From NCBI GenBank assembly GCA_964016885.1, contig OZ024741.1, positions 319,114,001-319,178,000 on the forward strand: a stretch of DNA of 64,000 nucleotides. Direction: 5' to 3'. Made by a program: the position numbers and the translations under genes. The DNA is from Eledone cirrhosa (lineage: Eukaryota). This document shows positions 6,201 to 63,690 of the stretch, piece by piece (position 1 is the stretch's first letter; each line of letters opens with the position of its first letter). The notes under the pieces were generated by a model. The model made no database searches and was not told the DNA's origin. It saw only the letters and a list, made by a program, of their open reading frames with translations.

Positions 6201-6524
6201 ACTAACTGAAGCAGTTATGTCAACCCTTTGTTGAATTAATAGTCGATCATCTGCGAACTTACTGGTGTTCATGATGCCGAGGTCATCTAATTAAACTGAT
6301 GATCATTGCATGAGCTACTGCTTACTATGAGACAAATAGTCTACCCAACAGCTACATAGCAAACATGCGTGCATGCATACACACGTCTGACACTTGGACC
6401 AATTAAGGAAGAACACATCATTCGTTTTTATTTTGCATTTAAAAAGAGGGTATTAACCCCGAAATATTTTGAAATATCCTGGGTAAGGAAAACATTACTT
6501 TGTTTTATTTTATTTGCCATCCTT

Positions 6525-9058: not shown

Positions 9059-9185
9059 TATATATCTCTACCACAAGTAGAAATATATAAGTACCAGCTT
9101 TCTGAAATACTTATCAATCATTTATTACATAACTCAAAATGCTTCATATTAACTATACTAATATACATAATCATCATTATTGTTT

Positions 9186-10995: not shown

Positions 10996-11065
10996 TCAGG
11001 CATCCACAGGTTTACTGCAAACATCCAAGTGATTAGAAACACCGAGTTCTTTCAAATTGATCAAT
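10996..11065 (-). CDS. Laminin alpha-like chain, apparent terminal coding exon (end of LG3)
   Basis: Strong poly-T + TTTTCAG acceptor; phase-2 join gives (I)LINLKELGVSNHLDVCSKPVDA*; TGA at 10998-10996; AATAAA on - at 10517-10512. Confidence 0.72.
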
Positions 11066-16338: not shown

Positions 16339-16530
16339 ATGTTTTCAACAAGAACACTGGATATACTCCCATCTAATGTTTCTGGTATTTCCTTGGCAGT
16401 TTGGTACTTTTCTGGTACACCTCCAATAGTGATGCTCATGGAGAAATCATTAGCATCATTACTAAACCAGCCAGACTTTTCTTTATATTTCATGTCCACA
16501 CTTCTTTGACCATCCAAACTGATATGAAGG
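16339..16530 (-). CDS. Laminin alpha-like exon (LG3)
   Basis: TTTAG / GTAAGT; LHISLDG...ITIGGVPEKYQTAKEIPETLDGSISSVLVEN, LG-type IGG.P motif; phases 2/2. Confidence 0.85.
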
Positions 16531-18025: not shown

Positions 18026-18162
18026 TTGCCCATTTCATCATCAACAGTTATTATATTCCAAAGTGCATTGCTTGAATTTCTGGATATCTTAGAGCTGTCA
18101 TCTGTCTCATGGTTCATAATCTCCACTAGAGAATCTTGTAGCTTTACCTCAATGGCAAATTT
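18026..18162 (-). CDS. Laminin alpha-like exon (LG3)
   Basis: TTTTGCAG / GTAAGT; KFAIEVKLQDSLVEIMNH...NALWNIITVDDEMG; phases 0/2. Confidence 0.82.
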
Positions 18163-19208: not shown

Positions 19209-19343
19209 ACTTTTTCTTTTAAAGAACAATGCCACACCATTGGCTTGATGGCTGACCTTCACTGATATTGACTTTACAGATGCAAAGTCAGGAAGATTGA
19301 TTGGCTTGGAGTTTTTGGTGAATTGAGAACATGATATCCACAA
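19209..19343 (-). CDS. Laminin alpha-like exon (start of LG3)
   Basis: TTCAG / GTGAGT; LWISCSQFTKNSKPINLPDFASVKSISVKVSHQANGVALFFKRKS; phases 0/0. Confidence 0.8.
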
Positions 19344-21144: not shown

Positions 21145-21250
21145 ATTATTTTCACAGTTTCCAAGATGTACATGTCGTGTATCTTCAAGCTGTAAGAGAG
21201 ATACTTCTTTATGGTTTAGCCAGATATTGGACAGACATCCTGTTAGTGAT
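21145..21250 (-). CDS. Laminin alpha-like exon (end of LG2)
   Basis: CTGCAG / GTAGGT; SLTGCLSNIWLNHKEVSLLQLEDTRHVHLGNCENN with the LG GC...C pair; phases 2/0. Confidence 0.85.
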
Positions 21251-22077: not shown

Positions 22078-22235
22078 CTGTATTGAGAGGTAGTGTTGTT
22101 TTGATAATGTGGTGATAAACCTCCAAGTAAAAAGCCAGTCTCCACCTCACTATTTACAGATCTATACACTGCATCAGTAAATTTCAACTTCTCATCAATC
22201 ATCCCAGCACTAAATTTTCCATTCTTGAAAGAAAT
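22078..22235 (-). CDS. Laminin alpha-like exon (LG2)
   Basis: TTTAG / GTGAGT; ISFKNGKFSAGMIDEK...GFLLGGLSPHY; phases 0/2. Confidence 0.85.
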
Positions 22236-23279: not shown

Positions 23280-23405
23280 CTGAAGTTTATGTAAAATTCC
23301 ATTGGAGAGTTTCTTAACTCCACTTAACTTCGCTGTCTGTGTATCCTCTAATTCATACTGGATATGGATGTTGCCAGATTCCATTGTGACGACCAGTAGA
23401 AAATT
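23280..23405 (-). CDS. Laminin alpha-like exon (LG2)
   Basis: TTCTAG / GTTAGT; NFLLVVTMESGNIHIQYELEDTQTAKLSGVKKLSNGILHKLQ; phases 0/0. Confidence 0.85.
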
Positions 23406-26400: not shown

Positions 26401-29400
26401 AGACTGGACCACAGACCAAATGATGGTTAGACACTGTGGTATGTCAATACCATAAGATACTGGACCACAGACCAAATGATGGTTAGACACTGTGGTATGT
26501 CAATACCATAAGAGACTGGACCACAGACCAAATGATGGTTAGACACAGAGGTAAGTCAACACCATAAGAGACTGGACCACAGACCAAATGATGGTTAGAC
26601 ACAGAGGTATGTCAACACCATAAGAGACTGGACCACAGACCAAATGATGGTTAGACACTGTGGTATGTCAATACCATAAGATACTGGACCACAGACCAAA
26701 TGATGGTTAGACACTGTGGTATGTCAATACCATAAGATACTGGACCACAGACCAAATGATGGTTAGACACTGTGCTATGTCAATACCATAAGAGACTGGA
26801 CCACAGACCAAATGATGGTTGGACACAGAGGTATGTCAACACCATAAGAGACTGGACCACAGACCAAATGATGGTTAGGCACTGTGGTATGTCAATACCA
26901 TAAGAGACTGGACCACAGACCAAATGATGGTTAGACACAGAGGTATGTCAACACCATAAGAGACTGGACCACAGACCAAATGATGGTTAGACACAGAGGT
27001 ATGTCAACACCATAAGAGACTGGATCACAGATCAAATGATGGTTAGACACTGTGGTATGTCAACACCATAAGAGACTGGACCACAGACCAAATGATGGTT
27101 AGACACTGTGGTATGTGAATACCATAAGATACTGGACCACAGACCAAATGATGGTTAGACACTGTGGTATGTCAATACCATAAGAGACTGGACCACAGAC
27201 CAAATGATGGTTAGACACAGAGGTAAGTCAACACCATAAGAGACTGGACCACAGACCAAATGATGGTTAGACACAGAGGTATGTCAACACCATAAGAGAC
27301 TGGACCACAGACCAAATGATGGTTAGACACTGTGGTATGTCAATACCATAAGATACTGGACCACAGACCAAATGATGGTTAGACACTGTGGTATGTCAAT
27401 ACCATAAGATACTGGACCACAGACCAAATGATGGTTAGACACTGCGGTATGTCAATACCATAAGATACTGGACCACAGACCAAATGATGGTTAGCCACAG
27501 AGGTATGTCAATACCATAAGAGACTGGACCACAGACCAAATGATGGTTGGACACAGAGGTATGTCAATACCATAAGAGACTGGACCACAGACCAAATGAT
27601 GGTTAGACACAGAGGTATGTCAATACCATAAGAGACTGGACCACAGACCAAATGATGGTTAGACACAGAGGTATGTCAATACCATAAGAGACTGGACCAC
27701 AGACCAAATGATGGTTAGACACTGTGGTATGTCAATACCATAAGATACTGGACCACAGACCAAATGATGGTTAGACACTGTGGTATGTCAATACCATAAG
27801 AGACTGGACCACAGACCAAATGATGGTTAGACAAAGAGGTATGTCAATACCATAAGAGACTGGACCACAGACCAAATGATGGTTAGACACTGTGGTATGT
27901 CAATACCATAAGATACTGGACCACAGACCAAATGATGGTTAGACACTGTGCTATGTCAATACCATAAGAGACTGGACCACAGACCAAATGATGGTTGGAC
28001 ACAGAGGTATGTCAACACCATAAGAGACTGGACCACAGACCAAATGATGGTTAGGCACTGTGGTATGTCAATACCATAAGAGACTGGACCACAGACCAAA
28101 TGATGGTTAGACACAGAGGTATGTCAACACCATAAGAGACTGGACCACAGACCAAATGATGGTTAGACACAGAGGTATGTCAACACCATAAGAGACTGGA
28201 TCACAGATCAAATGATGGTTAGACACTGTGGTATGTCAACACCATAAGAGACTGGACCACAGACCAAATGATGGTTAGACACAGAGGTAAGTCAACACCA
28301 TAAGAGACTGGACCACAGACCAAATGATGGTTAGACACAGAGGTATGTCAACACCATAAGAGACTGGACCACAGACCAAATGATGGTTAGACACTGTGGT
28401 ATGTCAATACCATAAGATACTGGACCACAGACCAAATGATGGTTAGACACTGTGGTATGTCAATACCATAAGATACTGGACCACAGACCAAATGATGGTT
28501 AGACACTGCGGTATGTCAATACCATAAGATACTGGACCACAGACCAAATGATGGTTAGCCACAGAGGTATGTCAATACCATAAGAGACTGGACCACAGAC
28601 CAAATGATGGTTGGACACAGAGGTATGTCAATACCATAAGAGACTGGACCACAGACCAAATGATGGTTAGACACAGAGGTATGTCAATACCATAAGAGAC
28701 TGGACCACAGACCAAATGATGGTTAGACACAGAGGTATGTCAATACCATAAGAGACTGGACCACAGACCAAATGATGGTTAGACACTGTGGTATGTCAAT
28801 ACCATAAGATACTGGACCACAGACCAAATGATGGTTAGACACTGTGGTATGTCAATACCATAAGAGACTGGACCACAGACCAAATGATGGTTAGCCACTG
28901 TGGTATGTCAATACCATAAGATACTGGACCACAGACCAAATGATGGTTAGACACTGTGGTATGTCAATACCATAAGATACTGGACCACAGACCAAATGAT
29001 GGTTAGACACTGTGCTATGTCAATACCATAAGAGACTGGACCACAGACCAAATGATGGTTGGACACAGAGGTATGTCAACACCATAAGAGACTGGACCAC
29101 AGACCAAATGATGGTTAGGCACTGTGGTATGTCAATACCATAAGAGACTGGACCACAGACCAAATGATGGTTAGACACAGAGGTATGTCAACACCATAAG
29201 AGACTGGACCACAGACCAAATGATGGTTAGACACAGAGGTATGTCAACACCATAAGAGACTGGATCACAGATCAAATGATGGTTAGACACTGTGGTATGT
29301 CAACACCATAAGAGACTGGACCACAGACCAAATGATGGTTAGACACTGTGGTATGTGAATACCATAAGATACTGGACCACAGACCAAATGATGGTTAGAC

Positions 29401-31085
29401 ACTGTGGTATGTCAATACCATAAGAGACTGGACCACAGACCAAATGATGGTTAGACACAGAGGTAAGTCAACACCATAAGAGACTGGACCACAGACCAAA
29501 TGATGGTTAGACACAGAGGTATGTCAACACCATAAGAGACTGGACCACAGACCAAATGATGGTTAGACACTGTGGTATGTCAATACCATAAGATACTGGA
29601 CCACAGACCAAATGATGGTTAGACACTGTGGTATGTCAATACCATAAGATACTGGACCACAGACCAAATGATGGTTAGACACTCCGGTATGTCAATACCA
29701 TAAGATACTGGACCACAGACCAAATGATGGTTAGCCACAGAGGTATGTCAATACCATAAGAGACTGGACCACAGACCAAATGATAGTTGGACACAGAGGT
29801 ATGTCAATACCATAAGAGACTGGACCACAGACCAAATGATGGTTAGACACAGAGGTATGTCAATACCATAAGAGACTGGACCACAGACCAAATGATGGTT
29901 AGACACAGAGGTATGTCAATACCATAAGAGACTGGACCACAGACCAAATGATGGTTAGACACTGTGGTATGTCAATACCATAAGATACTGGACCACAGAC
30001 CAAATGATGGTTAGACACTGTGGTATGTCAATACCATAAGAGACTGGACCACAGACCAAATGATGGTTAGCCACTGTGGTATGTCAATACCATAAGAGAC
30101 TGGACCACAGACCAAATGATGGTTAGTCAAAGACGTATGTCAATACCATAAGAGACTGGACCACAGACCAAATGATGGTTAGACACTGTGGTATGTCAAT
30201 ACCATAAGAGATTGGACCACAGACCAAATGATGGTTAGACTCAGAGGTATGTCAATACCATAAGAGACTGGACCACAAACCAAATGATGGTTAGCCACTG
30301 AGGTATGTCAACACCATAAGAGACTGGACCACAGACCAAATGATGGTTAGACACAGAGGTATGTCAATACCATAAGAGACTGGACCACAGACCAAATGAT
30401 GGTTAGACACTGAGGTATGTCAATACCATAAGAGACTGGACCACAGATCAAATGATGGTTAGACACTGTGGTATGTCAATACCATAAGAGACTGGACCAC
30501 AGACCAAATGATGGTTAGACACTGTGGTATGTCAAAACCATAAGAGACTGGACCACAGACCAAATGATGGTTAAACACAGGTATGTCAATACCATAAGAT
30601 ACTGGACCACAGACCAAATGATGGTTAGACACTGTGCTATTTCAATACCATAAGAGACTGGACCATAGACCAAATGATGGTTAGACACTGTGGTATGTCA
30701 ACACCATAAGAGACTGGACCACAGACCAGATGATGGTTAGTCAAAGAGGTATGTCAATACTTAAGAGACTGGACCACAGACCAAATGATGGTTAGCCACT
30801 GTGCTATGTCAATACCATAAGAGACTGGACCACAGACCAAATGATGGTTAGCCACTGAGGTATGTCAATGCCATAAGAGACTGGACCACAGACCAAATGA
30901 TGGTTAGACACAGAGGTATGTCAACACCATAAGAGATTGGACCACAGACCAAATGATGGTTAGACACAGAGGTATGTCAATACCATAAGAGACTGGACCA
31001 CAGACCAAATGATGGTTAGACATTGTGGTATGTCAATACCATAAGAGACTGGACCACAGACCAAATGATGGTTAGTCAAAGAGGT
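23454..31085. repeat. 56-bp minisatellite, about 136 units, filling one laminin intron
   Basis: Unit GTATGTCAATACCATAAGAGACTGGACCACAGACCAAATGATGGTTAGACAC(AGAG/TGTG); period 56 (23471 to 23527). Confidence 0.98.
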
Positions 31086-31155: not shown

Positions 31156-31300
31156 TGTATTTTTCAGAAATAAAAGCAAGACATCTGTCTGATGTGTTTT
31201 GAAGCTAAATTGAATTGATGTTAAACCATTCTTCAAGAGATTAGCAACTTGGAATTCTGCAAAACCATTACCTTCAAAGACCATTGAAGAGCTGTCACTA
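31156..31300 (-). CDS. Laminin alpha-like exon (start of LG2)
   Basis: TTCTACAG / GTAAGT; SDSSSMVFEGNGFAEFQV...IQFSFKTHQTDVLLLFLKNT, the classic LG F.G.GF...F.F.T...LL pattern; phases 2/0. Confidence 0.9.
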
Positions 31301-32830: not shown

Positions 32831-32949
32831 CATCCATGTGGGCAAGGTGTAGGTTGGGAAGCATCTGACAATGGCTGCATCAGAGATAGGGAATGTCCAT
32901 CAATATCAACTGATCCAACACAACCTTCCAGCTGTTTTAATTTGTTTTT
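32831..32949 (-). CDS. Laminin alpha-like exon (end of LG1)
   Basis: TATAG / GTAAGT; KNKLKQLEGCVGSVDIDGHSLSLMQPLSDASQPTPCPHG; phases 0/2. Confidence 0.87.
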
Positions 32950-36739: not shown

Positions 36740-37543
36740 CTACATTTTAAATTTATATTTAAAAGTTGAGTTCAATCTATGTCTGCAGCAACTGAATAAA
36801 TTTGTCCGTAAATTAAGGGAATTTTTAGATTTTAGTATAAAGAATATCTCCTCCGCGCAGAGGTCACATGTCTCAGAGGATGAATTAAAAGGAATCCCTC
36901 TTGAGACTATATTCCAAGCCGTCGAATATCCAACGTTATCATGCTTAAGTTGCCAGAGTAAGCCTGATAGTGATGTTGAAGATTTTTTGCTTGGATCTGT
37001 GAAAGAATTCTTGTGGTTATTATAGCGAAGTTTAAATTCTGTCGAGGTGGAACCAACATAGTTAAAAGAATTTAAGTCCGTTTTAACATTACAGTTGTAT
37101 ATTATATTTTTAACTAAGCAATTGTTATTTAACGGACATTTAGATCTATCTCTACAGTTACATTTGTTTACTTGGATATTATTTATGCTATTATCGGTAT
37201 TTTGGCTAGGTTTTAAATTCCTATTATTTATTCTATTAATATTTTGTGCTAAATTTTTGGTGGATGAGTAAGTTAATTTTATAGTATGTCTATTGAAAAT
37301 TGAGTGATACCTATGTGTTCTAGGGAAGCGATTATCAAGAGCATTAAAAAATAGTTTAGCGATGTGGGTTTTAATGTTTAGTGAGAAAGGGGGGGGGGGG
37401 GCACACCATATTATATTCCTAGTTCTATTTCTTTTTTGGCTTTTGGAATTATTGTAATGCTTTCTATTATAGTTGTTAAAGTTGTTGCCGTAATTAAAAT
37501 TGTTGTTATTTTGGTTAGTTTGTCTATTATTATCTATGTACAT
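36740..37543 (-). CDS. Penelope-like GIY-YIG endonuclease region (truncated element)
   Basis: CNCRDRSKCPLNNNCLVKNIIY...YVGSTSTEFKLRYNNHKNSF...LSGLLWQLK...CDLCAEEIFFI...CCRH. Confidence 0.85.
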   Translation of the reverse strand: MYIDNNRQTNQNNNNFNYGNNFNNYNRKHYNNSKSQKRNRTRNIIWCAPPPPFSLNIKTHIAKLFFNALDNRFPRTHRYHSIFNRHTIKLTYSSTKNLAQNINRINNRNLKPSQNTDNSINNIQVNKCNCRDRSKCPLNNNCLVKNIIYNCNVKTDLNSFNYVGSTSTEFKLRYNNHKNSFTDPSKKSSTSLSGLLWQLKHDNVGYSTAWNIVSRGIPFNSSSETCDLCAEEIFFILKSKNSLNLRTNLFSCCRHRLNSTFKYKFKM

Positions 37544-37767
37544 AATTTTATCACTATATCCTGCTCTAGATAACGCTTCATTGTAATACTGGGCTTTTTC
37601 GTCGAAAATCTTTTTATTAGATGAGATTCTAGAGATTCTCTATTTAGTTGCATGCATTTCTTTTTATAACTGTCCCTAACATTTTTCACTACCAAATCAA
37701 CTTTTTAAATAGAAGTTGAAGTTGTAAGGTATGTCAAATCTATCTATTTATAAGACTGTTTATATTG

Positions 37768-39595: not shown

Positions 39596-39743
39596 CCATA
39601 ATTCCTCAGGATAACCACCAATATAAGCAACTGAAGGAGATACATGCTCAGCATTAATCTTTGGTAGAAATAATTTAACAACTTCTTTTTTCTTTTCTTC
39701 TACTGAAATGGGATTGACCATCATACTGAAGTTTCGACCAATT
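39596..39743 (-). CDS. Laminin alpha-like exon (LG1)
   Basis: TTCTAG / GTAAGT; IGRNFSMMVNPIS...AYIGGYPEELW, LG YIGG.P motif; phases 2/0. Confidence 0.88.
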
Positions 39744-40680: not shown

Positions 40681-41200
40681 AAATCAGTCTTACACATGTT
40701 TTTATAAATGAAATAAAGAGTAAAGGTAGAGTTAGATGTCCATATATGGAAGTAAATCCATATATTAGTTATCAGGCTAATATGAGAATCTTCCTCTATC
40801 TTTACACTTTATTTCATTTGTAGAAATGCTCATAAAACTTATAAAGTGTTGTAAATTTCCTCTGAACCTTTGGATTTATTAGTAGTTATGCTTTATGACC
40901 TTACACATACACAATATTTTGGATTAATTTATCCTATGGATTGAAGGCACGTGGCTTAGTTGTTAGAGAGTTGGATTCACAATCGTGAAGTTGCGAGTTC
41001 AATTCTCAGACAGGGTGATGCATTTGGTCCTTGAGCAAGACACTTTATTTCACATTGCTCCTTCTGCCAGGAGTTGCAACTGGAAGAGAGTATCAGCAAC
41101 GGAAAAACCAATGGAAACATTGTTTCCTTGGTCCGATTTGATGAGGTCCACCCTACTTGGCAAGCGAATAAGGTCTGGGATCTTGACTATTAGGGCCAGT

Positions 41201-42748
41201 CATCATCATCATTATTTTACGTCCGCTCTTCCCTGCTTGCAAAGGTGGGACGGGTCTTATTCAGCACAGCATCTCCCCACCGTGAGCTTCAGTGATCTGA
41301 GGTCTGTCCTCATCACCTCCGCCCATGTTTTTCGTGGTCTACCTCTACCACGTCTTCCTTCAACTGGCATTTCCTGGCACTTCTTCACCCATCGGACATC
41401 CTCCATGCGTATCACATGTCCATACCACCTCAGTCTCCTCTCCCGTACACTACATTCTATCCCTCTTAGACACAGTTTCTCTCTCAACACATTCATGTTG
41501 GGTCGTTCACACACATTGACACTGCACATCCAATGGAGCATGCTTGCCTCATTTCTCTCCAGCCGTTGCATATCCTCTGCAGTTGCTGCCCATGTCTCAC
41601 TACCATGCAGCATCATGCTCCTCACACAGGCATCATATAATCAGCCTTTCGTACGCAGGGAGAAACCCTTCTTCATAAGCAGAGGAAGCAGCTCCCTAAA
41701 CTTCTTCCAACCCATCCTTATTCTAGATACTATGGCCTCGGAACCCCCCCCCCCATGCTAATCTGATCTCCTAGGTATCAGAAGCTATCCACCACTTCTA
41801 CTGTTTAATTTCCCTGTACATCTACTGCATATGTATTTCTCCCTACCTGTTAGTTTGCCTGCTATCCCACTACACCTCTTGTGTACCATATCAAACATGG
41901 CCATTTCCCTGATGGAATCAGAGTTTTGTCCTCTTTTCTACTCATCAACACTTTTGTCTTAGCTAGGTTCACTCTCAGTCCTCTTGATTCCAATGCTGTT
42001 TCCATAGCCAGAATTTATTCTCTATCTCCTCTACTGATTCTGCTATAAGAACCAGATCGTCAGCATAGAGAAGTTCCCATGGACAGCCAGTCTTAAACTC
42101 CTCTGTTATGGCTTGGAGGACTATAATGAACAAGAGCAGGCTGAGGACCGAACCCTGATATACTCCTACTTGTATCTGGAATTCCTCATTAAACTCCATT
42201 CCTACCCTGACTTTACTGACAGCACCTCTGTACAAAGTTTGCACTGTCCTCACAAGCCATTCCTCAACACCTAGTTTCCTTGGGGACCACCAGATGACAG
42301 ATCGGGGAACCCTATCAAAGACCTTATCTAGCTTAACAAAAGCTAAGTATAGTGGCTTATTCGTCTCTAAGAACCTCTCTTGTAATTGTCTCACCAAGAA
42401 GAGGGCATCTATTGTACTTTTCCCAGGCATAAAACCAAACTGCATCTCATCTAGTTTGACCCTTTCTCTAATTAGTTGTGCTAATATCCTTTCTGCCACT
42501 TTCATAACCTGATCCATCAGTTTTATACCCCTATAATTGCTCCTCTCCAGAGCATCCCCTTTACCTTTGTAGCAATTTATGAGAATACTGCTGCACCAGT
42601 CTTTGGGTATGACACCACCATATATAGCCTGATTGATGATGCGTGCAACCAGTATAGTGCCTACGTCCCCTGATGCCTTCAGCATCTCAGCAACTATTCC
42701 CGATGGTCCAGCAGCCTTACCATTTTTCATTTCCTTAATCGCCTCTTA
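41201..42748 (-). mobile_element. 5'-truncated RTE LINE closely related to 1640-3373
   Basis: ORFs 41975-42730 (RT) and 41257-41625; (TCA)n tail; internal deletions in the PHD-like region. Confidence 0.92.
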
Positions 42749-42949
42749 AAAATATGTAATCTAATGAAAACTGGTGAATTGAGTCATAAATACATTGTGA
42801 ATACATTTTTAAACAATAAAGACAAATAAAATATAATTTAGTTTTATTAATGTGAGACTTGGTATTTGGTATAGGTCAACTAACAGAAAATTGTATTACA
42901 GTTCCCGAATAAATTCTAAATAACCCTACAAGGTAAAAATTAAAAATGG

Positions 42950-43221: not shown

Positions 43222-43355
43222 CTTTGAATACCAAACATGTACCAAATATTTGGTTTTGTTTTAAATTTAGATTCAATTTTCTTCAGTTGATTTCCATCTT
43301 TATCGTAGACTGTTAAAAACACGGCACTATTCTGTAGGCCGAGAATGTAGCTTAC
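43222..43355 (-). CDS. Laminin alpha-like exon (LG1)
   Basis: TTCAG / GTAAT; VSYILGLQNSAVFLTVYDKDGNQLKKIESKFKTKPNIWYMFGIQ(R); phases 0/2. Confidence 0.85.
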
Positions 43356-43479: not shown

Positions 43480-46400
43480 ATGGCCATTCCTCTGATGACA
43501 GCAGAGCCATCCGTAATCACAATGTCATTTGTTCAACGAAAACAGTTCAGTCTCTTCATGAAAACAGTCATTTTCTTAATGACCACAGGCAATTCTCCTT
43601 ATGATAACAAGATAATTCCCTAATGACAATACGGTCATTCCACTAACGACAACATAGTCATTTCACTAATGACAATTTGAACATACCCTATTAACAAGGT
43701 CATCCCCCAATCACAATGTCATGTCATTTCTCTAATGACAACATGGCTATTCCCTAATATCATTTTCCTAATGATAGCAAGGTCATTCCCTATTCACAAT
43801 GTCTTTTTTCTAATGACAACATGGCCATTCCACTGATGGCAACATGGTCATTCCCTAATGACAACTTAGTCATTCCACTAATGACAACTTAGTCATTCCA
43901 CTAATGACAGCAAGGTCATTCCTCTAATGACAACATGGTCATTCCACTAATGACAACATGGTCATTCCTCTAATGACAACATGGTAATTCCTCTAATGAC
44001 AACATGGTAATTCCGCTAATGACAACATGGTAATTCCGCTAATGACAACATGGTCATTCCTCTAATGACAACATGGTAATTCCACTAATGACAACATGGT
44101 CATTCCTCTAATGACAACATGGTCATTCCACTAATGGCAACATGGTCATTCCTCTAATGACAACAAAGCCATTACCCAATGACAACATGGTCATTTCATT
44201 AATGACAACATGGTCATTCCGCTAATGACAACATGGTCATTCCTCTAATGACAACATGGTAATTCCACTAATGACAACATGGTCATTCCGCTAATGACAA
44301 CAAAGCCATTACCCAATGACAACATGGTCATTCCTCTAATGACAACATGGTCATTCCTCTAATGACAACATGGTCATTCCACTAATGACAACATGGTCAT
44401 TCCTCTAATGACAACATGGTCATTCCTCTAATGACAACATGGTCATTCCTCTAATGACAACATGGTAATTCCTCTAATGACAACATGGTCATTCCACTAA
44501 TGACAACATGGTCATTCCTCTAATGACAACATGGTCATTCCTCTAATGACAACATGGTCATTCCTCTAATGACAACATGGTCATTCCTCTAATGACAACA
44601 TGGTAATTCCTCTAATGACAACATGGTCATTCCACTAATGACAACATGGTCATTCCTCTAATGACAACATGGTCATTCCTCTAATGACAACATGGTCATT
44701 CCTCTAATGACAACATGGTCATTCCTCTAATGACAACATGGTAATTCCTCTAATGACAACATGGTCATTCCACTAATGACAACATGGTCATTCCACTAAT
44801 GACAACATGGTCATTCCTCTAATGACAACATGGTCATTCCTCTAATGACAACATGGTCATTCCTCTAATGACAACATGGTCATTCCTCTAATGACAACAT
44901 GGTAATTCCTCTAATGACAACATGGTCATTCCACTAATGACAACATGGTCATTCCTCTAATGACAACATGGTCATTCCGCTAATGACAACAAAGCCATTA
45001 CCCAATGACAACATGGTCATTCCTCTAATGACAACATGGTCATTCCTCTAATGACAACATGGTAATTCCACTAATGACAACATGGTCATTCCTCTAATGA
45101 CAACATGGTCATTCCTCTAATGACAACATGGTCATTCCTCTAATGACAACATGGTCATTCCTCTAATGACAACATGGTAATTCCTCTAATGACAACATGG
45201 TCATTCCACTAATGACAACATGGTCATTCCTCTAATGACAACATGGTCATTCCTCTAATGACAACATGGTCATTCCGCTAATGACAACAAAGCCATTACC
45301 CAATGACAACATGGTCATTCCTCTAATGACAACATGGTCATTCCTCTAATGACAACATGGTCGTTCCACTAATGACAACATGGTCATTCCTCTAATGACA
45401 ACATGGTCATTCCTCTAATGACAACATGGTCATTCCTCTAATGACAACATGGTCATTCCTCTAATGACAACATGGTAATTCCTCTAATGACAACATGGTC
45501 ATTCCACTAATGACAACATGGTCATTCCTCTAATGACAACATGGTCATTCCGCTAATGACAACAAAGCCATTACCCAATGACAACATGGTCATTCCTCTA
45601 ATGACAACATGGTCATTCCTCTAATGACAACATGGTCATTCCACTAATGACAACATGGTCATTCCACTAATGACAACATGTTCATTCCTCTAATGACAAC
45701 ATGGTCATTCCTCTAATGACAACATGGTCATTCCTCTAATGACAACATGGTCATTCCTCTAATGACAACATGGTCATTCCACTAATGACAACATGGTCAT
45801 TCCGCTAATGACAACATGGTCATTCCTCTAATGACAACATGGTCATTCCTCTAATGACAACATGGTCGTTCCACTAATGACAACATGGTCATTCCTCTAA
45901 TGACAACATGGTCATTCCTCTAATGACAACATGGTCATTCCTCTAATGACAACATGGTCATTCCTCTAATGACAACATGGTCATTCCTCTAATGACAACA
46001 TGGTAATTCCTCTAATGACAACATGGTCATTCCACTAATGACAACATGGTCATTCCTCTAATGAAAACATGGTCATTCCTCTAATGACAACATGGTCATT
46101 CCGCTAATGACAACAAAGCCATTACCCAATGACAACATGGTCATTCCTCTAATGACAACATGGTCATTCCTCTAATGACAACATGGTAATTCCTCTAATG
46201 ACAACATGGTCATTCCTCTAATGACAACATGGTCATTCCTCTAATGACAACATGGTCATTCCTCTAATGACAACAAAGCCATTACCCAATGACAACATGG
46301 TCATTCCTCTAATGACAACAAAGCCATTACCCAATGACAACATGGTCATTCCTCTAATGACAATAAAGCCATTACCCAATGACAACATGGTCATTCCTCT

Positions 46401-49400
46401 AATGACAACAAAGCCATTACCCAATGACAACATGGTCATTCCTCTAATGACAACATGGTAATTCCTCTAATGACAACATGGTCATTCCTCTAATGACAAC
46501 ATGGTAATTCCTCTAATGACAACATGGTCATTCCACTAATGACAACATGGTCATTCCTCTAATGACAACATGGTCATTCCTCTAATGGCAACATGGTCAT
46601 TCCGCTAATGACAACAAAGCCATTACCCAATGACAACATGGTCATTCCTCTAATGACAACATGGTCATTCCTCTAATGACAACATGGTCATTCCGCTAAT
46701 GACAACAAAGCCATTACCCAATGACAACATGGTCATTCCTCTAATGACAACATGGTCATTCCACTAATGACAACATGGTCATTCCTCTAATGACAACATG
46801 GTCATTCCTCTAATGACAACATGGTAATTCCTCTAATGACAACATGGTCATTCCACTAATGACAACATGGTCATTCCACTAATGACAACATGGTCATTCC
46901 TCTAATGACAACATGGTCATTCCGCTAATGACAACAAAGCCATTACCCAATGACAACATGGTCATTCCTCTAATGACAACATGGTCATTCCTCTAATGAC
47001 AACATGGTAATTCCTCTAATGACAACATGGTCATTCCACTAATGACAACATGGTCATTCCTCTAATGACAACATGGTCATTCCTCTAATGACAACATGGT
47101 CATTCCGCTAATGACAACAAAGCCATTACCCAATGACAACATGGTCATTCCTCTAATGACAACATGGTCATTCCTCTAATGACAACATGGTCATTCCACT
47201 AATGACAACATGGTCATTCCTCTAATGACAACATGGTCATTCCTCTAATGACAACATGGTCATTCCTCTAATGACAACATGGTAATTCCTCTAATGACAA
47301 CATGGTCATTCCACTAATGACAACATGGTCATTCCTCTAATGACAACATGGTCATTCCGCTAATGACAACAAAGCCATTACCCAATGACAACATGGTCAT
47401 TCCTCTAATGACAACATGGTCATTCCTCTAATGACAACATGGTCATTCCACTAATGACAACATGGTCATTCCTCTAATGACAACATGGTCATTCCTCTAA
47501 TGACAACATGGTCATTCCTCTAATGACAACATGGTCATTCCTCTAATGACAACATGGTCATTCCGCTAATGACAACATGGTCATTCCGCTAATGACAACA
47601 TGGTCATTCCTCTAATGACAACATGGTAATTCCTCTAATGACAACATGGTCATTCCACTAATGACAACATGGTCATTCCTCTAATGACAACATGGTCATT
47701 CCGCTAATGACAACAAAGCCATTACCCAATGACAACATGGTCATTCCTCTAATGACAACATGGTCATTCCTCTAATGACAACATGGTAATTCCTCTAATG
47801 ACAACAAAGCCATTACCCAATGACAACATGGTCATTCCTCTAATGACAACATGGTCATTCCTCTAATGACAACATGGTCATTCCACTAATGACAACATGG
47901 TCATTCCTCTAATGACAACATGGTCATTCCTCTAATGACAACATGGTCATTCCTCTAATGACAACATGGTCATTCCTCTAATGACAACATGGTCATTCCT
48001 CTAATGACAACATGGTAATTCCTCTAATGACAACATGGTCATTCCACTAATGACAACATGGTCATTCCTCTAATGACAACATGGTCATTCCTCTAATGAC
48101 AACATGGTCATTCCGCTAATGAGAACAAAGCCATTACCCAATGACAACATGGTCATTCCTCTAATGACAACATGGTCATTCCTCTAATGACAACATGGTA
48201 ATTCCTCTAATGACAACATGGTCATTCCTCTAATGACAACATGGTCATTCCTCTAATGACAACAAAGCCATTACCCAATGACAACATGGTCATTCCTCTA
48301 ATGACAACAAAGCCATTACCCAATGACAACATGGTCATTCCTCTAATGACAACATGGTCATTCCTCTAATGACAATATGGTCATTCCACTAATGGCAACA
48401 TGGTCATTCCACTAATGACAACAAAGCCATTACCCAATGACAACATGGTCATTCCTCTAATGACAACATGGTCATTCCTCTAATGACAACATGGTCATTC
48501 CACTAATGACAACATGGTCATTCCACTAATGGCAACAAGGTCATTCCTCTAATGACAACATGGTAATTCCACTAATGACAACATGGTAATTCCACTAATG
48601 ACAACATGGTCATTCCTCTAATGACAACATGGTCATTCCTCTAATGACAACATGGTCATTCCTCTAATGACAACATGGTCATGCCGCTAATGACAACAAA
48701 GCCATTACCCAATGACAACATGGTCATTCCTCTAATGACAACATGGTCATTCCTCTAATGACAACAAAGCCATTACCCAATGACAACATGGTCATTCCTC
48801 TAATGACAACATGGTCATTCCTCTAATGACAACATGGTCATTCCACTAATGGCAACATGGTCATTCCACTAATGACAACAAAGCCACTACCCAATGACAA
48901 CATGGTCATTTATTAATGACAACATGGTCATTCCGCTAATGACAACATGGTCATTCCTCTAATGACAACATGGTAATTCCTCTAATGACAACATGGTCAT
49001 TCCACTAATGACAACATGGTCATTCCTCTAATGGCAACATGGTCATTCCTCTAATGACAACATGGTCATTCCACTAACGACAACATGGTCATTCCTCTAA
49101 TGACAACATGGTCATTCCTCTAATGACAACATGGTCATTCCTCTAATGACAACATGGTCATTCCACTAATGACAACATGGTCATTCCTCTAATGACAACA
49201 TGGTCATTCCTCTAATGACAACATGGTCATTCCGCTAATGACAACAAAGCCATTACCCAATGACAACATGGTCATTCCTCTAATGACAACATGGTCATTC
49301 CTCTAATGACAACATGGTCATTCCTCTAATGACAACATGGTCATTCCACTAATGACAACATGGTCATTCCACTAATGACAACATGGTCATTCCTCTAATG

Positions 49401-52400
49401 ACAACATGGTCATTCCGCTAATGACAACAAAGCCATTACCCAATGACAACATGGTCATTCCTCTAATGACAACATGGTCATTCCTCTAATGACAACATGG
49501 TCATTCCACTAATGACAACATGGTCATTCCTCTAATGACAACATGGTCATTCCTCTAATGACAACATGGTCATTCCTCTAATGACAACATGGTCATTCCT
49601 CTAATGACAACATGGTCATTCCTCTAATGACAACATGGTAATTCCTCTAATGACAACATGGTCATTCCACTAATGACAACATGGTCATTCCTCTAATGAC
49701 AACATGGTCATTCCGCTAATGACAACAAAGCCATTACCCAATGACAACATGGTCATTCCTCTAATGACAACATGGTCATTCCTCTAATGACAACATGGTT
49801 ATTCCTCTAATGACAACATGGTCATTCCTCTAATGACAACATGGTCATTCCTCTAATGACAACAAAGCCATTACCGAATGACAACATGGTCATTCCTCTA
49901 ATGACAACAAAGCCATTACCCAATGACAACATGGTCATTCCTCTAATGACAACATGGTCATTCCTCTAATGACAATATGGTCATTCCACTAATGTCAACA
50001 TGGTCATTCCACTAATGGCAACATGGTCATTCCACTAATGGCAACATGGTCATTCCTCTAATGACAACAAAGCCATTACCCAATGACAACATGGTCATTC
50101 CTCTAATGACAACATGGTCATTCCTCTAATGACAACATGGTCATTCCACTAATGACAGCATGGTCATTCCACTAATGGCAACATGGTCATTCCACTAATG
50201 ACAACATGGTCATTCCTCTAATGACAACATGGTCATTCCTCTAATGACAACATAGTCATTCCGCTAATGACAACAAAGCCATTACCCAATGACAACATGG
50301 TCATTCCTCTAATGACAACATGGTCATTCCTCTAATGACAACAAAGCCATTACCCAATGACAACATGGTCATTCCTCTAATGACAACATGGTCATTCCTC
50401 TAATGACAACATGGTCATTCCACTAATGGCAACATGGTCATTCCACTAATGACAACAAAGCCATTACCCAATGACAACATGGTCATTTCATTAATGACAA
50501 CATGGTCATTCCGCTAATGACAACATGGTCATTCCACTAATGACAACAAAGCCATTACCCAATGACAACATGGTCATTTCATTAATGACAACATGGTCAT
50601 TCCTCTAATGACAACATGGTCATTCCTCTAATGACAACATGGTAATTCCTCTAATGACAACATGGTCATTCCACTAATGACAACATGGTCATTCCTCTAA
50701 TGACAACATGGTCATTCCACTAATGGCAACATGGTCATTCCACTAATGACAACAAAGCCATTACCCAATGACAACATGGTCATTTCATTAATGACAACAT
50801 GGTCATTCCTCTAATGACAACATGGTCATTCCTCTAATGACAACATGGTAATTCCTCTAATGACAACATGGTCATTCCACTAATGACAACATGGTCATTC
50901 CTCTAATGACAACATGGTCATTCCACTAATGGCAACATGGTCATTCCACTAATGACAACAAAGCCATTACCCAATGACAACATGGTCATTTCATTAATGA
51001 CAACATGGTCATTCCGCTAATGACAACATGGTCATTCCACTAATGGCAACATGGTCATTCCACTAATGACAACAAAGCCATTACCCAATGACAACATGGT
51101 CATTTCATTAATGACAACATGGTCATTCCGCTAATGACAACATGGTCATTCCTCTAATGACAACATGGTAATTCCGTTAATGACAACATGGTCATTCCGC
51201 TAATGACAACATGGTCATTCCTCTAATGACAACATGGTAATTCCACTAATGACAACATGGTCATTCCTGTAATGACAACATGGTCATTCCTCTAATGACA
51301 ACAAAGCCATTACCCAATGACAACATGGTCATTCCTCTAATGACAAAATGGTCATTCCACTAATGGCAACATGGTCATTCCTCTAATGACAACAAAACCA
51401 TTACCCAATGACAACATGGTCATTTCATTAATGACAACATGGTCATTCCGCTAATGACAACATGGTCATTCCTCTAATGACAACATGGTAATTCCACTAA
51501 TGACAACATGGTCATTCTGCTAATGAAAACAAAGCCATTACCCAATGACAACATGGTCATTCCTCTAATGACAACATGGTCATTCCTCTAATGACAACAT
51601 GGTCATTCCACTAATGTCAACATGGTCATTCCTCTAATGACAACAAAGCCATTACCCAATGGCAACATGGTCATTTCATTAATGACAACATGGTCATTCT
51701 GCTAATGACAACATGGTCATTCCACTAATGACAACATGGTCATTCCACTAATGGCAACATGGTCATTCCACTAATGACAACATGGTCATTCCACTAATGG
51801 CAACATGGTAATTCCACTAATGACAACATGGTCATTCCTCTAATGACAACATGGTCATTCCTCTAATGACAACATGGTCATTCCTCTAATGACAACAAAG
51901 CCATTACCCAATGACAACATGGTCATTTCATTAATGACAACATGGTCATTCCTCTAATGACAACATGGTCATTCCTCTAATGACAACATGGTCATTCCTC
52001 TAATGACAATATGGTCATTCCACTAATGTCAACATGGTCATTCCACTAATGGCAACATGGTCATTCCACTAATGGCAACATGGTCATTCCACTAATGGCA
52101 ACATGGTCATTCCTCTAATGACAACAAAGCCATTACCCAATGACAACATGGTCATTTCATTAATGACAACACGGTCATTCCGCTAATGACAACATGGTCA
52201 TTCCACTAATGACAACATGGCCATTCCACTAATGGCAACATGGTCATTCCTCTAATGACAACATGGTCATTCCACTAATGACAACATGGTCATTCCATTA
52301 ATGACAACATGGTCATTCCACTAATGGCAACATGGTCATTCCTCTAATGACAACATGGTAATTCCACTAATGACAACATGGTAATTCCTCTAATGACAAC

Positions 52401-55310
52401 ATGGTCATTCCTCTAATGACAACATGGTCATTCCTCTAATGACAACATGGTCATTCCGCTAATGACAACAAAGCCATTACCCAATGACAACATGGTCATT
52501 CCTCTAATGACAACATGGTCATTCCTCTAATGACAACATGGTCATTCCTCTAATAACAACAAAGCCATTACCCAATGACAACATGGTCATTCCTCTAATG
52601 ACAACATGGTCATTCCTCTAATGACAACATGGTAATTCCGTTAATGACAACATGGTCATTCCTCTAATGACAACATGATCATTCCTCTAATGACAACATG
52701 GTAATTCCACTAATGACAACATGGTCATTCCTCTAATGACAACATGGTCATTCCTCTAATGACAACATGATCATTCCTCTAATGACAACATGGTAATTCC
52801 ACTAATGACAACATGGTCATTCCTCTAATGACAACATGGTCATTCCTCTAATGACAACATGGTCATTCCTCTAATGACAACAAAGCCATTACCCAATGAC
52901 AACATGGTCATTCCTCTAATGACAAAATGGTCATTCCACTAATGGCAACATGGTCATTCCTCTAATGACAACAAAGCCATTACCCAATGACAACATGGTC
53001 ATTTCATTAATGACAACATGGTCATTCCGCTAATGACAACATGGTCATTCCTCTAATGACAACATGGTCATTCCACTAATGGCAACATGGTCATTCCACT
53101 AATGGCAACATGTTCATTCCACTAATGGCAACATGGTCATTCCTCTAATGACAACAAAGCCATTACCCAATGACAACACGGTCATTCCACTAATGACAAC
53201 ATGGTCATTCCACTAATGGCAACATGGTCATTCCTCTAATGACAACAAAGCCATTACCCAATGACAACATGGTCATTTCATTAATGACAACATGGTCATT
53301 CCGCTAATGACAACATGGTCATTCCACTAATGGCAACATGGTCATTCCACTAATGGCAACATGGTCATTCCACTAATGACAACATGGTCATTCCTCTAAT
53401 GACAACAAAGCCATTACCCAATGACAACACGGTCATTCCGCTAATGACAACATGGTCATTCCACTAATGACAACATGGTCATTCCACTAATGGCAACATG
53501 GTCATTCCTCTAATGACAACATGGTCATTCCTCTAATGACAACATGGTCATTCCACTAATGACAACATGGTCATTCCACTAATGACAACATGGTCATTCC
53601 ACTAATGGCAACATGGTCATTCCTCTAATGACAACATGGTAATTCCACTAATGACAACATGGTCATTCCTCTAATGACAACATGGTCATTCCTCTAATGA
53701 CAACATGGTCATTCCGCTAATGACAACAAAGCCATTACCCAATGACAACATGGTCATTCCTCTAATGACAACATGGTCATTCCTCTAATGACAACATGGT
53801 CATTCCTCTAATGACAACATGGTCATTCCTCTAATGACAACAAAGCCATTACCCAATGACAACATGGTAATTCCACTAATGACAACAAAGCCATTACCCA
53901 ATGACAACATGGTCGTTTCATTAATGACAACATGGTAATTCCGCTAATGACAAAATGGTCATTCCACTAATGACAACATGGTCATTCCGCTAATGACAAA
54001 ATGGTCATTCCACTAATGACAACATGGTCATTCCTCTAATGACAACATGGTCATTCCTCTAATGACAACAAAGCCATTACCCAATGACAACATGGTCATT
54101 CCTCTAATGACAAAATGGTCATTCCACTAATGGCAACATGGTCATTCCTCTAATGACAACAAAGCCATTACCCAATGACAACATGGTCATTTCATTAATG
54201 ACAACATGGTCATTTCATTAATGACAACATGGTCATTCCTCTAATGACAACATGGTCATTTCATTAATGACAACATGGTCATTCCGCTAATGACAACATG
54301 GTCATTCCTCTAATGACAACATGGTCATTCCACTAATGGCAACATGGTCATTCCACTAATGGCAACATGGTCATTCCACTAATGGCAACATGTTCATTCC
54401 ACTAATGGCAACATGGTCATTCCTCTAATGACAACAAAGCCATTACCCAATGACAACATGGTCATTTCATTAATGACAACATGGTCATTCCTCTAATGAC
54501 AACATGGTCATTTCATTAATGACAACATGGTCATTCCGCTAATGACAACATGGTCATTCCTCTAATGACAACATGGTCATTCCACTAATGACAACATGGT
54601 CATTCCACTAATGGCAACATGGTCATTCCACTAATGGCAACATGGTCATTCCTCTAATGACAACATGGTCATTCCACTAATGACAACAAAGCCATTACCC
54701 AATGACAACATGGTCATTTCATTAATGACAACATGGTCATTCCGCTAATGACAACATGGTCATTCCACTAATGACAACATGGTCATTCCACTAATGGCAA
54801 CATGGTCATTCCTCTAATGACATCATGGTCATTCCTCTAATGACAACATGGTTATTCCACTAATGGCAACATGGTCATTCCACTAATGGCAACATGGTCA
54901 TTCCTCTAATGGCAACATGGTCATTCCACTAATGACAACATGGTCATTCCTCTAATGACAACATGGTCATTCCTCTAATGACAACATGGTTATTCCACTA
55001 ATGGCAACATGGTCATTCCACTAATGGCAACATGGTCATTCCTCTAATGGCAACATGGTCATTCCACTAATGACAACATGGTCATTCCTCTAATGACAAC
55101 ATGGTCATTCCTCTAATGACAACATGGTTATTCCACTAATGGCAACATGGTCATTCCACTAATGGCAACATGGTCATTCCACTAATGGCAACATGGTCAT
55201 TCCACTAATGACAACATGGTCATTCCTCTAATGACAAAAAAGCCATTACCCAATGACAACATGGTCCTTCATCTAATGACAACATGGTTGTTCTCCAATG
55301 GTAACATGGT
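43480..55310. repeat. 23-bp quasi-palindromic minisatellite, about 500 units, with an interspersed 22-bp variant
   Basis: Unit ATGGTCATTCC(T/A/G)CTAATGACAAC; variant AAAGCCATTACCCAATGACAAC; decays gradually at 43480-43860 and at the right edge. Confidence 0.98.
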
Positions 55311-56012: not shown

Positions 56013-56159
56013 AGAGTTATTGGCCTTTACTGCAAGGATGGCACCACTGTTCATTTTTGGTTTAACACAAACATCCATTGCTGACTGGATTTTTCTAGAA
56101 TCCAATCTGGGATGTAGAGGCACTATTAGATGATCCTTGCCTGTTAACTTTACAGGGAT
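56013..56159 (-). CDS. Laminin alpha-like exon (start of LG1)
   Basis: TTTCAG / GTAAGT; IPVKLTGKDHLIVPLHPRLDSRKIQSAMDVCVKPKMNSGAILAVKANNS; phases 0/0. Confidence 0.85.
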
Positions 56160-56996: not shown

Positions 56997-57160
56997 CTTC
57001 ATTGCAGATAACAATGTGCGTGCCAAGTGTATTTTATGTTGGATCTGTGAAATGTTCAGCCGTAACTGTTGCACATTATTGAGAACTGATTTGTGTAAAT
57101 CTTTTGGCAGTTCCTGTAGCGTCTTGTTCATGGTGGTCATCTCCTGCTTACTTTTGGCAA
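56997..57160 (-). CDS. Laminin alpha-like exon (C-terminal end of the coiled coil)
   Basis: TTTTTAG / GTACTA; ...NNVQQLRLNISQIQHKIHLARTLLSAMK then IPVKLTG, comparable to the alpha3/alpha5 junction NI.RIRELI.QAR.AASKV.VPMKFNG as recalled; phases 1/0. Confidence 0.85.
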
Positions 57161-57949: not shown

Positions 57950-59815
57950 CATCAATTTCAATTTGCTTAGTTGTTTTGACAAAAAATTTAATTACGGCCT
58001 CATCATCATCTGCTTTATCTGACTGCCATGTTGCATTTGTTTGACCTCTTTTATGTAATTTCAGTTTTCTTTTCCTTTTCATCTGTCTTCTTCTCCTCCT
58101 AGCATCTCTCTTTCTATTCAAAGAGTTGTTGCTATTCTGACTGTTTCGTAAATCTCTTCTGTAACGTTTCAGTCTTTTAATTTTCAATTTTAATTTATTC
58201 TTTTTTGATTCTTTGCCTTCTTTCGTAGAATTTTTAACATTTCTCTGCAACTGTATATTTGTTACATTATAAACATTCTTACTATTCTTCAACCCAATAT
58301 CTTTTTCTTGCTCCTTTTCATAATTATTTTCATCTTTTTTAAATAATGAAACCATTTCTTCAACATCTTCTACCACACTTTGATCATTTTGAAATTTACT
58401 TTTTTCATTTAGAGTTATATCTTCACTTCCTGCTTCATATTTTCTGCTTTTCTTCAACAGCTCTTCAGATTCTACTAAATTTTCCCAGAAATCTAACCAA
58501 TTTGTTTTCTTTGATGTTTCACTGCCACTCTTCCTCTCACTTTCCCCATCATTCTTGCTTTTAATTTTTTTAATTTTAAAACCCTTGTTCCTTCCATCTT
58601 TGCCCTTGCCAGGTTTCTTCTCATTTCTGTTATCACCTTTTTTCTCATTTCTTTTATCATCTTTTTCCTTGCCAAGTTTCTTATTTTTTTTATCACCCTT
58701 TTCCTTGCCAAGTTTCTTATATTTTTTATCACCCTTTTCCTTGCCAAGTTTTTTATATTTTTTATCACCCTTTTCCTTGCCAAGTTTCTTCCTATTTGTT
58801 TCATCCCCTTTTTCCTTACCACTTTTCTTCTCATTGTTCCTTTCACCTAACATGTTTCTTCTACCACCATTCTCTTTTGGTGTAGCCTTTCCATCATGTT
58901 CAAATCCATTGTATTTATGTCCACTGATTCCATCCCCATTTGTCTGTTCTTGGTTTCCTTTTTCTTGGATTGAATTTTCAAAAGTCATCAAACCTTCCCA
59001 GACATCCAACCAATTTTCTTTCTTTGTCTCATCTCTCCCACTTAACCTGATGGTTTCCTTATCTTTATTTCCTTCTTTCTTCTTTTTCTTTTCCTCCTCC
59101 ACATTTTTATTTTTTGTCATCCATGCCTGCTTGTTCTTCACATTAATTTTCCTCTTTCTTTCTTTCTTTCTTTTCTTTACCTTTCTATCCTCTTCTTCAA
59201 CCACATCACTGTTTCCTCTATTTCTTTGTCCATCTATCTTCTTATTTTGTCTATTTCCAGCTGTTGTATGTTTGTTACTGTGGGAATGTTTATCAGTTTT
59301 CGTCCTCATTCCACTGCTACTCAAACTCTCACCGTCTCCAAGACTTATGTCACTTTCAGATTGATTTTTCATTTTTCTTCTTCCTTTTTCATTCCTGCTC
59401 GTTTCCTTTTTATTTTTCCTTTGAAATATTATTTTATCAATGTCACCATTGGTTACATCATTCTTTGATTTAGATTTTCCATCCAATGCCTCAGGTGTAT
59501 CTCGCTGTCTTTTCTTCTTTTTTTTTAGTACTTTCTTCTTTTCCTTAGCCTTCTTCTCTAGTTCTTTCTTTCTTTCTTCCAGTAGCTTCCTTAGATTGTC
59601 CTCATCTGCAAGAACTTTCTCTGCCAATGCATTCATGGTGTCAACTTTGGTCAGAATCAGATCCAGCTCAGCAGTGGTTTCTTTCAGTTCTGCTAAGTAT
59701 CTAGTTCTGTTAGACAGAAATTCCATAACATGATTTTGGAGGTGACTGGTACTACCTGATAGTTTCTCAGTTCTGGATAGCGACGAGGAAATATGAACCA
59801 AATCAGGTTTCAAAT
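57950..59815 (-). CDS. Laminin alpha-like giant exon: coiled-coil segment plus about 500-aa Lys/Glu-rich insert
   Basis: TTTTCTTCCAG acceptor (59817-59816) and G|GTAAAT donor (57949); one stop-free frame over 1866 bp; phase 1/1, in frame with both neighbouring exons. Confidence 0.8.
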
Positions 59816-62410: not shown

Positions 62411-62500
62411 CTTGGATGTCTTGGTGGACATCCTTACTACGGCTCTTCATGTTGTCTCTGAAATCAGTGATGTGCTTTAGGTAAGGTCCCAGCAATCTCT
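62411..62500 (-). CDS. Laminin alpha-like exon (coiled coil); most 5' exon found in the window
   Basis: TTTCTACTTGACAG / AAG|GTAGAT; RLLGPYLKHITDFRDNMKSRSKDVHQDIQ(D); phase 1/1, joins the giant exon in frame. Confidence 0.65.
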
Positions 62501-62519: not shown

Positions 62520-63690
62520 CTTACAAACTTACACAGACTGTAGTAAATATATATATATATACAAACTTACATGGACTGAGGTAAATATATATACAAACTT
62601 ACATGGACTGAGGTAAATACATATACAAACTTAGATGGACTGAGGTAAATATATATACAAACTTAGATGGACTAAGGTAAATATATATACAAACTTACAT
62701 GGACTGAGGTAAATATATATACAAACTTAGATGGACTGAGGTAAATATATATACAAACTTAGATGGACTAAGGTAAATATATATACAAACTTACATGGAC
62801 TGAGGTAAATATATATACAAACTTAGATGGGGCTGAGGTAAATATATATACAAACTTACATGGACTGAGGTAAATATATATACAAACTTACATGGACTGA
62901 GGTAAATATATATACAAACTTACATGGACTGAGGTAAATATATATACAAACTTACATGGACTGAGGTAAATATATATACAAACTTAGATGGACTGAGGTA
63001 AATATATATACAAACTTACATGGGGCTGAGGTAAATATATATACAAACTTACATGGACTGAGGTAAATATATATACAAACTTAGATGGACTAAGGTAAAT
63101 ATATATACAAACTTACATGGGGCTGAGGTAAATATATATATATATAAATATATACATACTTATATGGGATGAGGTAAATACATATACATACTTACATGGA
63201 CTGAGGTAAATATATATATACATACTTACATGAGCTGAAGTAAATATATATATACAAACTTGCATGGACTGAGGTAGATATATATATATATTTACATGGG
63301 CGGAGGTAAATCCATATATATATATACACATACTTACATGGGCTGAGGTTTTATATATATATACACATACTTACATGGGCTGAGGTAAATATATATATAT
63401 ACAGGCTTACAAGGACTGATGTAAATATATATACAAACTTACATGGACTGAGGTAGATATATATATACATACTTACATGGGCTGAGGTAAATATATATAT
63501 ATACATACTTACATGGCCTGATATAAATATATATACAAACTTACATGGGCTAAAGTAAAAATATATATACATACTTACATGGACTGATGTAAATATATAT
63601 ATATATATATATATATACATACTTACATGGGCTGAAGTAAATATATATACATACTTACATGGACTGATGTAAATATATATACATACTTAT
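62520..63690. repeat. 32-bp minisatellite, homogeneous to about 63130 then degenerate with (TA)n expansions
   Basis: Unit TACAAACTTACATGGACTGAGGTAAATATATA; period 32 (62881 to 62913). Confidence 0.95.

Follow-up and report, generated by a model that had tools for sequence, protein, structure and literature searches.

Laminin alpha chains are named by type, alpha1/2 for the Wing blister/LAM-3 type and alpha3/5 for the LanA/EPI-1 type. A review states that polymerisation is restricted to laminins with all three LN domains, that dystroglycan and heparin bind mainly at LG4, and that invertebrates have only two laminin isoforms; it presents the role of laminins without the full short-arm set as an open question (PMC6744579). 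Mature laminin alpha3A of laminin-332 is described as having LG4-5 removed and a short arm that can be removed by proteolysis, which leaves the coil and LG1-3 (PMC3544776). Here we describe a gene in a 64,000-nucleotide stretch of the Eledone cirrhosa genome (the window) that encodes a coil and LG1-3 with a long basic insert near the end of the coil.

Gene model

We mapped Octopus proteins onto the window together with 200 kb of neighbouring genome (a 264-kb region). The gene lies on the minus strand and has 25 exons, running from 137881 (extended window) to 10996 (Table 1). All 24 introns are GT-AG, the first of them 51 kb long, and a single terminal stop ends a 1953-aa protein that is 55-56% identical end to end to the proteins of O. 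vulgaris and O. sinensis. A hydrophobic leader, a putative signal peptide, follows the first Met here and in most relatives. Only nine Cys residues precede LG1. A search of this genome with one family member as query, at the stricter threshold of a first look, found this gene as the sole locus.

Table 1 Positions of the encoded features in the window, except where extended window coordinates are given
Feature	Position	Strand	Basis or remark
Exons 1-10, leader, N-terminal coil, hinge 1	68157-137881 (extended window coordinates, beyond window)	minus	Octopus mapping
Exon 11, aa 709-738, coil	62411..62500	minus	Octopus mapping
Exon 12 of 25, aa 739-1360: helix before the insert, the insert itself, beginning of terminal helix	57950..59815	minus	AG/GT, phase 1/1, stop-free; in Octopus models
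Pre-insert coiled-coil helix, aa 739-822	59565..59815	minus	Predicted helix, pLDDT 65-89 over residues 21-100; 75% identical to O. sinensis
Polybasic low-complexity insert, 518 aa, aa 823-1340	58011..59564	minus	Composition; unmatched by non-cephalopod family profile
36-bp (12-aa) in-frame tandem repeat, 5.2 copies	58641..58829	minus	Absent from Octopus proteins
Furin-type motif RYRR↓DL (putative cleavage), near the insert's end	58155..58166	minus	Identical in three Octopus proteins
Exon 13, aa 1361-1415, terminal coil helix, Laminin II-like	56997..57160	minus	Matched through the O. sinensis protein to the laminin alpha1 coil end of 5mc9
Exon 14, LG1	56013..56159	minus	Octopus mapping
Exon 15, LG1	43222..43355	minus	Octopus mapping
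Exon 16, LG1	39596..39743	minus	Octopus mapping
Exon 17, LG1 end and linker	32831..32949	minus	Met/Pro at alpha1 Trp2293/Tyr2295 columns
Exon 18, LG2	31156..31300	minus	Octopus mapping
Exon 19, LG2	23280..23405	minus	Octopus mapping
Exon 20, LG2	22078..22235	minus	Octopus mapping
Exon 21, LG2 end	21145..21250	minus	Octopus mapping
Exon 22, LG3	19209..19343	minus	Octopus mapping
Exon 23, LG3	18026..18162	minus	Octopus mapping
Exon 24, LG3	16339..16530	minus	Octopus mapping
Exon 25 coding part, LG3 end and stop codon, no LG4-5 after	10996..11065	minus	Orthologues stop at same point

The introns in the window contain three tandem arrays (23470-31075, 56 bp, 136 copies; 43809-55288, 23 bp, 502 copies; 62553-63601, 32 bp, 31 copies). 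Fragmented retroelement-like frames that look like reverse transcriptase by eye occur at ~6500-9100 and ~41000-42750, and a 299-aa frame at 36740-37639 resembles the nuclease region of a mobile element.

Coding status of exon 12

Exon 12 was originally predicted to be a coding exon with canonical splice sites, in frame with its neighbours, and this is borne out. Read on the minus strand from 59815 to 57950, it comprises 1866 bp with an AG acceptor behind a pyrimidine tract, a GT donor and phase 1 on both sides. Its three frames hold 39, 95 and 0 stops. Across 2000 base shuffles of the exon the best frame always contained at least 26 stops, so A/G-rich composition does not by itself explain the open frame. 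The coding frame starts at 59813; translation of the interval from its first base, as initially listed, is out of frame. Both proposed junctions, 62411>59815 and 57950>57160, are matched gap-free by the Octopus sinensis model. The expected succession of about 85 helical residues and K/E/R/N/G-rich, Cys-free sequence was also recovered, as ~84 helix-like residues followed by a low-complexity stretch with K 23%, E 10%, N 10%, R 8% and G 8% and no Cys.

The exon-encoded protein is present in gene models of three Octopus species. Searched against longer proteins, the exon gave two matches, from Octopus vulgaris and O. bimaculoides, and their clusters add a second O. bimaculoides model and two O. 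sinensis isoforms, X1 and X2. The basic stretch is present in all five, each of them a gene model. In one O. bimaculoides model the first exon of LG1 is missing, and six LG1 residues are missing from that of O. vulgaris, probably through model errors. Pfam applied to the exon alone returned only FliT, below cut-off.

It is very improbable that the K-rich interior is spliced out or that the exon is an annotation artefact. The exon does contain four internal GTRAG donors, but it has no internal pyrimidine-tract acceptor, and its interior is stop-free in one frame only. Furthermore, a distant relative that is sister to octopods and has a 41% identical LG part encodes, in a single frame, a basic stretch of 550 residues together with the coil end and LG1-3. 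Its contigs measure 4.9-5.1 kb, and the same span takes 47 kb with 13 introns here; the contigs thus likely represent spliced transcript.

Laminin-alpha identity and short plan

The encoded protein is an armless laminin-alpha-like chain, with an alpha-type coiled coil and LG1-3 and without LN, LE, L4 and LG4-5. We hold this architecture with high confidence. Downstream of exon 12 the exons supply the end of the coil and three LG domains, and LG1-3 follows directly after the coil.

Three results argue for a laminin-alpha origin, as was foreseen for the flanks of the exon. With the O. sinensis protein as query, the coil end and LG1-2 match 5mc9 (E 1e-10). A fold search with the predicted structure of a 41%-identical relative (mean pLDDT 81) returned 5mc9 and 5xau as top folds, and neurexin ranked under laminin E8. 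The helical region of the family is collinear with the alpha1/2 coil (profile-profile probability 97%, E 9e-11, template columns 68-559 of 597), against 3-21% for reversed controls and 0.1% or less for each of three shuffles. The C-terminal half of the coil alone aligns weakly to canonical alpha (8-20% vs 2-6% reversed). Pfam Laminin_II was hit in 4 of 20 family members, below cut-off only, and Laminin_I in none of the 20. An atlas search with the C-terminal part retrieved laminin alpha clusters at 0.95 as well as a 55-member LG cluster, and the N-terminal half gave no usable match. We rejected an LG protein of the neurexin/agrin/perlecan type: no LG is interleaved with EGF or Ig domains and the alpha coil is present.

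The original prediction, which took alpha chains normally to run an essentially continuous coil into LG1, had assigned the exon to a laminin alpha chain with an insert; the host is not an ordinary chain of this kind. Low-complexity segments interrupt the coil at three places throughout the family. A canonical full-length alpha chain carrying a single insert is scarcely credible, despite an O. bimaculoides model auto-named 'laminin subunit alpha-2-like' and a first intron large enough that it could conceal exons. Pfam LN, LE and L4 were absent from the orthologues and from all 20 family proteins scanned, with EGF_laminin detected in five of five canonical controls, and no LN match was found near the gene. 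Canonical alpha chains used as queries had no match in the 264-kb region; the gene's own divergent LG exons were missed as well, so this negative is informative for conserved LN/LE and less so for LG4-5. The stop codon after LG3, where the relatives end too, leaves three LG domains rather than five. The same short plan is common to all full-length relatives, in gastropods and bivalves, and canonical alpha genes occupy other loci of this genome.

A family found across molluscs

With the C-terminal 613 aa as query, a sensitive search found 68 proteins. The top ranks go to proteins in which the match ends near the C-terminus and which, where complete, mostly measure 1190-1860 aa; canonical alpha chains come next. 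Nine of ten family proteins that we looked up are named molluscan predictions, from Haliotis, Pinctada, Pecten, Lottia, Plakobranchus, Mytilus, Patella, Babylonia and Mercenaria. They stand in databases as uncharacterised or alpha-2-like predictions. Full-text searches of main texts found no description of the armless family or its insert; proteomic or transcriptomic tables may list these accessions.

In a quick tree of the coil end and LG1-3 (P0031, P0058 and P0075 excluded), one branch separates 18 family rows from 30 canonical rows with an SH-aLRT of 100. The family divides into cephalopod, pteriomorph and gastropod subgroups and its stem branch is long. Canonical alpha1/2-type chains also occur in Lottia, Haliotis, Pecten, Mytilus, Mercenaria, Babylonia and Plakobranchus. 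These seven genera thus hold both kinds of chain, which marks the family as an extra lineage and not a worn-down alpha1/2. We likewise rejected the family as the molluscan alpha1/2 orthologue, as it is not nested among alpha1/2. Judged from the well-supported branch and the canonical alpha1/2 chains in the same genera, the armless chains are a third alpha-type lineage in molluscs. As to the parent alpha type, the tree gives AU p values of 0.25 for alpha1/2 and 0.14 for alpha3/5, with long branches meeting.

Family members vary at two further sites. The first is an N-terminal low-complexity stretch of 32-529 aa, which reaches 480-530 aa in four members; that of the Babylonia member spans 490 aa with 29% K+R. 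The second, hinge 1, is marked by acidic GSG motifs and a pair of Cys residues. In the Mytilus and Pecten members (P0083, P0019) hinge 1 is a mucin-like S/T/P-rich segment of 360-396 aa. Exon 10 (68373-68157, extended window) encodes a Cys pair around an acidic EGSG motif that is found in most family members and is a candidate glycosaminoglycan attachment site by the consensus for such sites.

This genome has two canonical alpha loci (G000:C2:70.50-70.70 Mb and G000:C27:6.85-7.01 Mb; L025, L026), whose LN exons score best against the alpha3/5 type. The first LN exons of the C27 locus are present twice, through duplication or an assembly artefact. Two queries of this genome with alpha1/2-type LN found no further locus among the best-scoring candidates, and no named cephalopod is among the best 120 of 2672 matches to Lottia alpha1/2. 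A loss of alpha1/2 in octopods is plausible from these searches.

The polybasic insert

The insert of 518 aa contains 31% K+R and 17% D+E and has a pI of 10.1. It lies in the distal coil, in line with the original prediction: all 15 of 15 non-cephalopod members lack it and have a polar linker of 20-42 aa at this site. Positions 438-683 of a family profile built from 16 non-cephalopod members match aa 612-852 of the encoded protein, and the match resumes near 700 past the insert. In the coil, the matches of the encoded protein to the family profile have E values of 1e-9 and 2e-4. The insert alone has no match to this profile. The pre-insert helix matches profile positions 566-679 weakly (8-11 bits vs 5 reversed), and order and anchor motifs weigh more than the score in its placement. 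About 75 helical residues stand between insert and LG1.

The expectation of disorder holds for much of the insert but not for all of it. AlphaFold2, run on the exon product with four Octopus rows, yields a confident N-terminal helix and places 364 of 621 residues below pLDDT 50, but it also predicts two basic helices (pLDDT 76-91).

The insert is the least conserved part of the protein, with 51% identity to O. sinensis vs 60-75% elsewhere. Its length ranges from 460 to 550+ aa, it contains a young 36-bp tandem repeat, it occupies a site where a polar linker already interrupts the coil in other molluscs, and part of it is flanked by furin-type sites, a class to which we assign RYRR↓DL by the furin consensus. 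These features would suit a tolerated, nearly neutral linker expansion, or a segment removed by furin-type proteases, with no binding role whether or not the chain pairs with beta/gamma. We consider this improbable, because the open frame and the net positive charge are retained in the window, in three Octopus species and in the distant relative, and because conserved islands, two NWLD-W motifs, also occur in Octopus. The charge stays at +0.10 to +0.14 per residue across three compared inserts despite their sequence divergence. The insert likely binds polyanions such as heparan sulfate; condensation, also raised in the original prediction, is a further candidate role. Counting against this reading, the inserts are polyampholytic (17-24% acidic) and have only 3-4 BBXB motifs.

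The two copies of the amphipathic NWLD-W-E-L motif lie at 58502 and 59015 on the minus strand. They are kept in Octopus and unseen in the distant relative, and may form short binding helices.

Possible assembly with beta and gamma chains

This genome contains beta and gamma genes, whose C-terminal exons encode the terminal Cys, and these chains would be the partners of the armless chain. The alpha coil is mostly retained in order and length, which suggests partners of matching length. In the mini-E8, ~50 coil residues are reported to be enough for a stable integrin-binding trimer (PMC5343747). By analogy, the ~75-aa helix between insert and LG1 may suffice to organise LG1-3.

LG1 gives a different signal. 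An aromatic pair at the coil interface (alpha1 Trp2293/Tyr2295) seats the gamma tail and is said to occur in all alpha chains (PMC5343747). Both residues are kept in 31 of 40 canonical rows and in none of the 18 family rows, in an alignment where some rows may be one residue off in the loop. The loss of this pair makes pairing with beta/gamma uncertain and casts doubt on an integrin-binding heterotrimer.

The same armless protein could instead act independently of beta/gamma, as a secreted rod, built as a homo-oligomer or with other partners, that bears LG heads and exchangeable low-complexity cassettes and works in matrix, mucus, cuticle or adhesive. Besides the lost aromatic pair, this is suggested by the long stem branch, by the extra Cys in the terminal helix and the Cys pair at hinge 1 of many non-octopod members, and by the lineage-specific cassettes, S/T/P-rich in Mytilus and Pecten and N-terminal in the four members with the longest stretches. 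The retained coil speaks against it, as does the report that a trimeric coil is required for alpha LG1-3 to close their triangle (PMC5343747). We regard such a rod as possible but doubtful.

A coil-opening CxxC occurs within the first 200 aa of 8 of 13 non-cephalopod members; neither the protein encoded here nor its O. sinensis counterpart has one. A complex prediction of the O. sinensis coil end and LG1-3 with the beta/gamma tails of this genome scored 0.09 vs a mark of 0.34, in a run whose controls did not fold and which weighs neither for nor against pairing. A PF23219 search for short beta-like partners matched nothing anywhere and is uninformative. The last exon of a laminin gamma gene (L029:5272-5535, G000:C1) places a Glu fourth from the C-terminal end; the integrin-binding Glu of mouse gamma1 is third from the end (PMC5343747).

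A proposed role for the armless chain

Our preferred reading is that the armless chain is likely secreted and likely assembles with ordinary beta/gamma into a non-polymerising laminin, and that the basic insert, likely a binder of polyanions, is predicted to protrude from the coil as a loop. Taken as a whole, we judge this evenly balanced between right and wrong. A trimer with this chain would not polymerise, since without an alpha LN there are no three-arm polymer nodes, and with LG4-5 the main dystroglycan and heparin site is gone. The basic loop outside the coil may substitute for LG4-5 as an electrostatic anchor. Cleavage at two furin-type sites (aa ~608 and ~1289) could cut the loops and leave the pieces held on the coil. 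The armless chain would then be a gene-encoded counterpart of a trimmed alpha chain such as mature alpha3A.

More speculatively, molluscs may have a third, undescribed laminin alpha lineage that ends at LG3 and carries swappable disordered cassettes. Octopods would have lost canonical alpha1/2, kept the armless chain and added a 500-residue polycation that anchors to or condenses with polyanionic matrix. A basement membrane or adhesive matrix built in this way would involve neither LN polymerisation nor binding of dystroglycan by the armless chain. We consider this extended scenario rather unlikely in full and offer it tentatively.

The gene itself has lost the short arm and LG4-5 in this third alpha-type lineage, which gastropods, bivalves and cephalopods have kept. 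Such a lineage is a natural test of how laminins with incomplete short arms function. It also shows that the coil of the long arm can accommodate insertions hundreds of residues long beside the integrin-binding end. If alpha1/2 is truly absent in octopods, their basement membranes have a different alpha set from those of other molluscs.

Comparison with known systems

Pif-like/LamG3 shell matrix proteins are secreted by molluscs and, like the armless chains, contain a laminin G-type domain (bioRxiv 10.1101/2021.07.10.451900). They have chitin-binding/vWA domains, one LamG3 and no coil, and do not belong to the armless family. With laminin alpha chains the family has in common an alpha-type coiled coil that runs into LG1-3; it differs in being without LN, LE, L4/LF and LG4-5, in the three low-complexity breaks of the coil and in the loss of the LG1 aromatic pair. 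Processed laminin alpha3A, beside which laminin alpha4 is placed for comparison, resembles the armless chain in that proteolysis can leave it as coil and LG1-3. In the armless chain, however, it is the gene that encodes the truncation, LE repeats are entirely gone, the origin is separate and lies in molluscs, and large inserts occur. Laminin E8 and mini-E8 (PDB 5MC9, 5XAU) correspond to the part after the insert, the ~75-aa helix and LG1-3, in extent and predicted fold. Unlike the armless chain, whose trimer is putative, E8 is an artificial or proteolytic heterotrimeric fragment.
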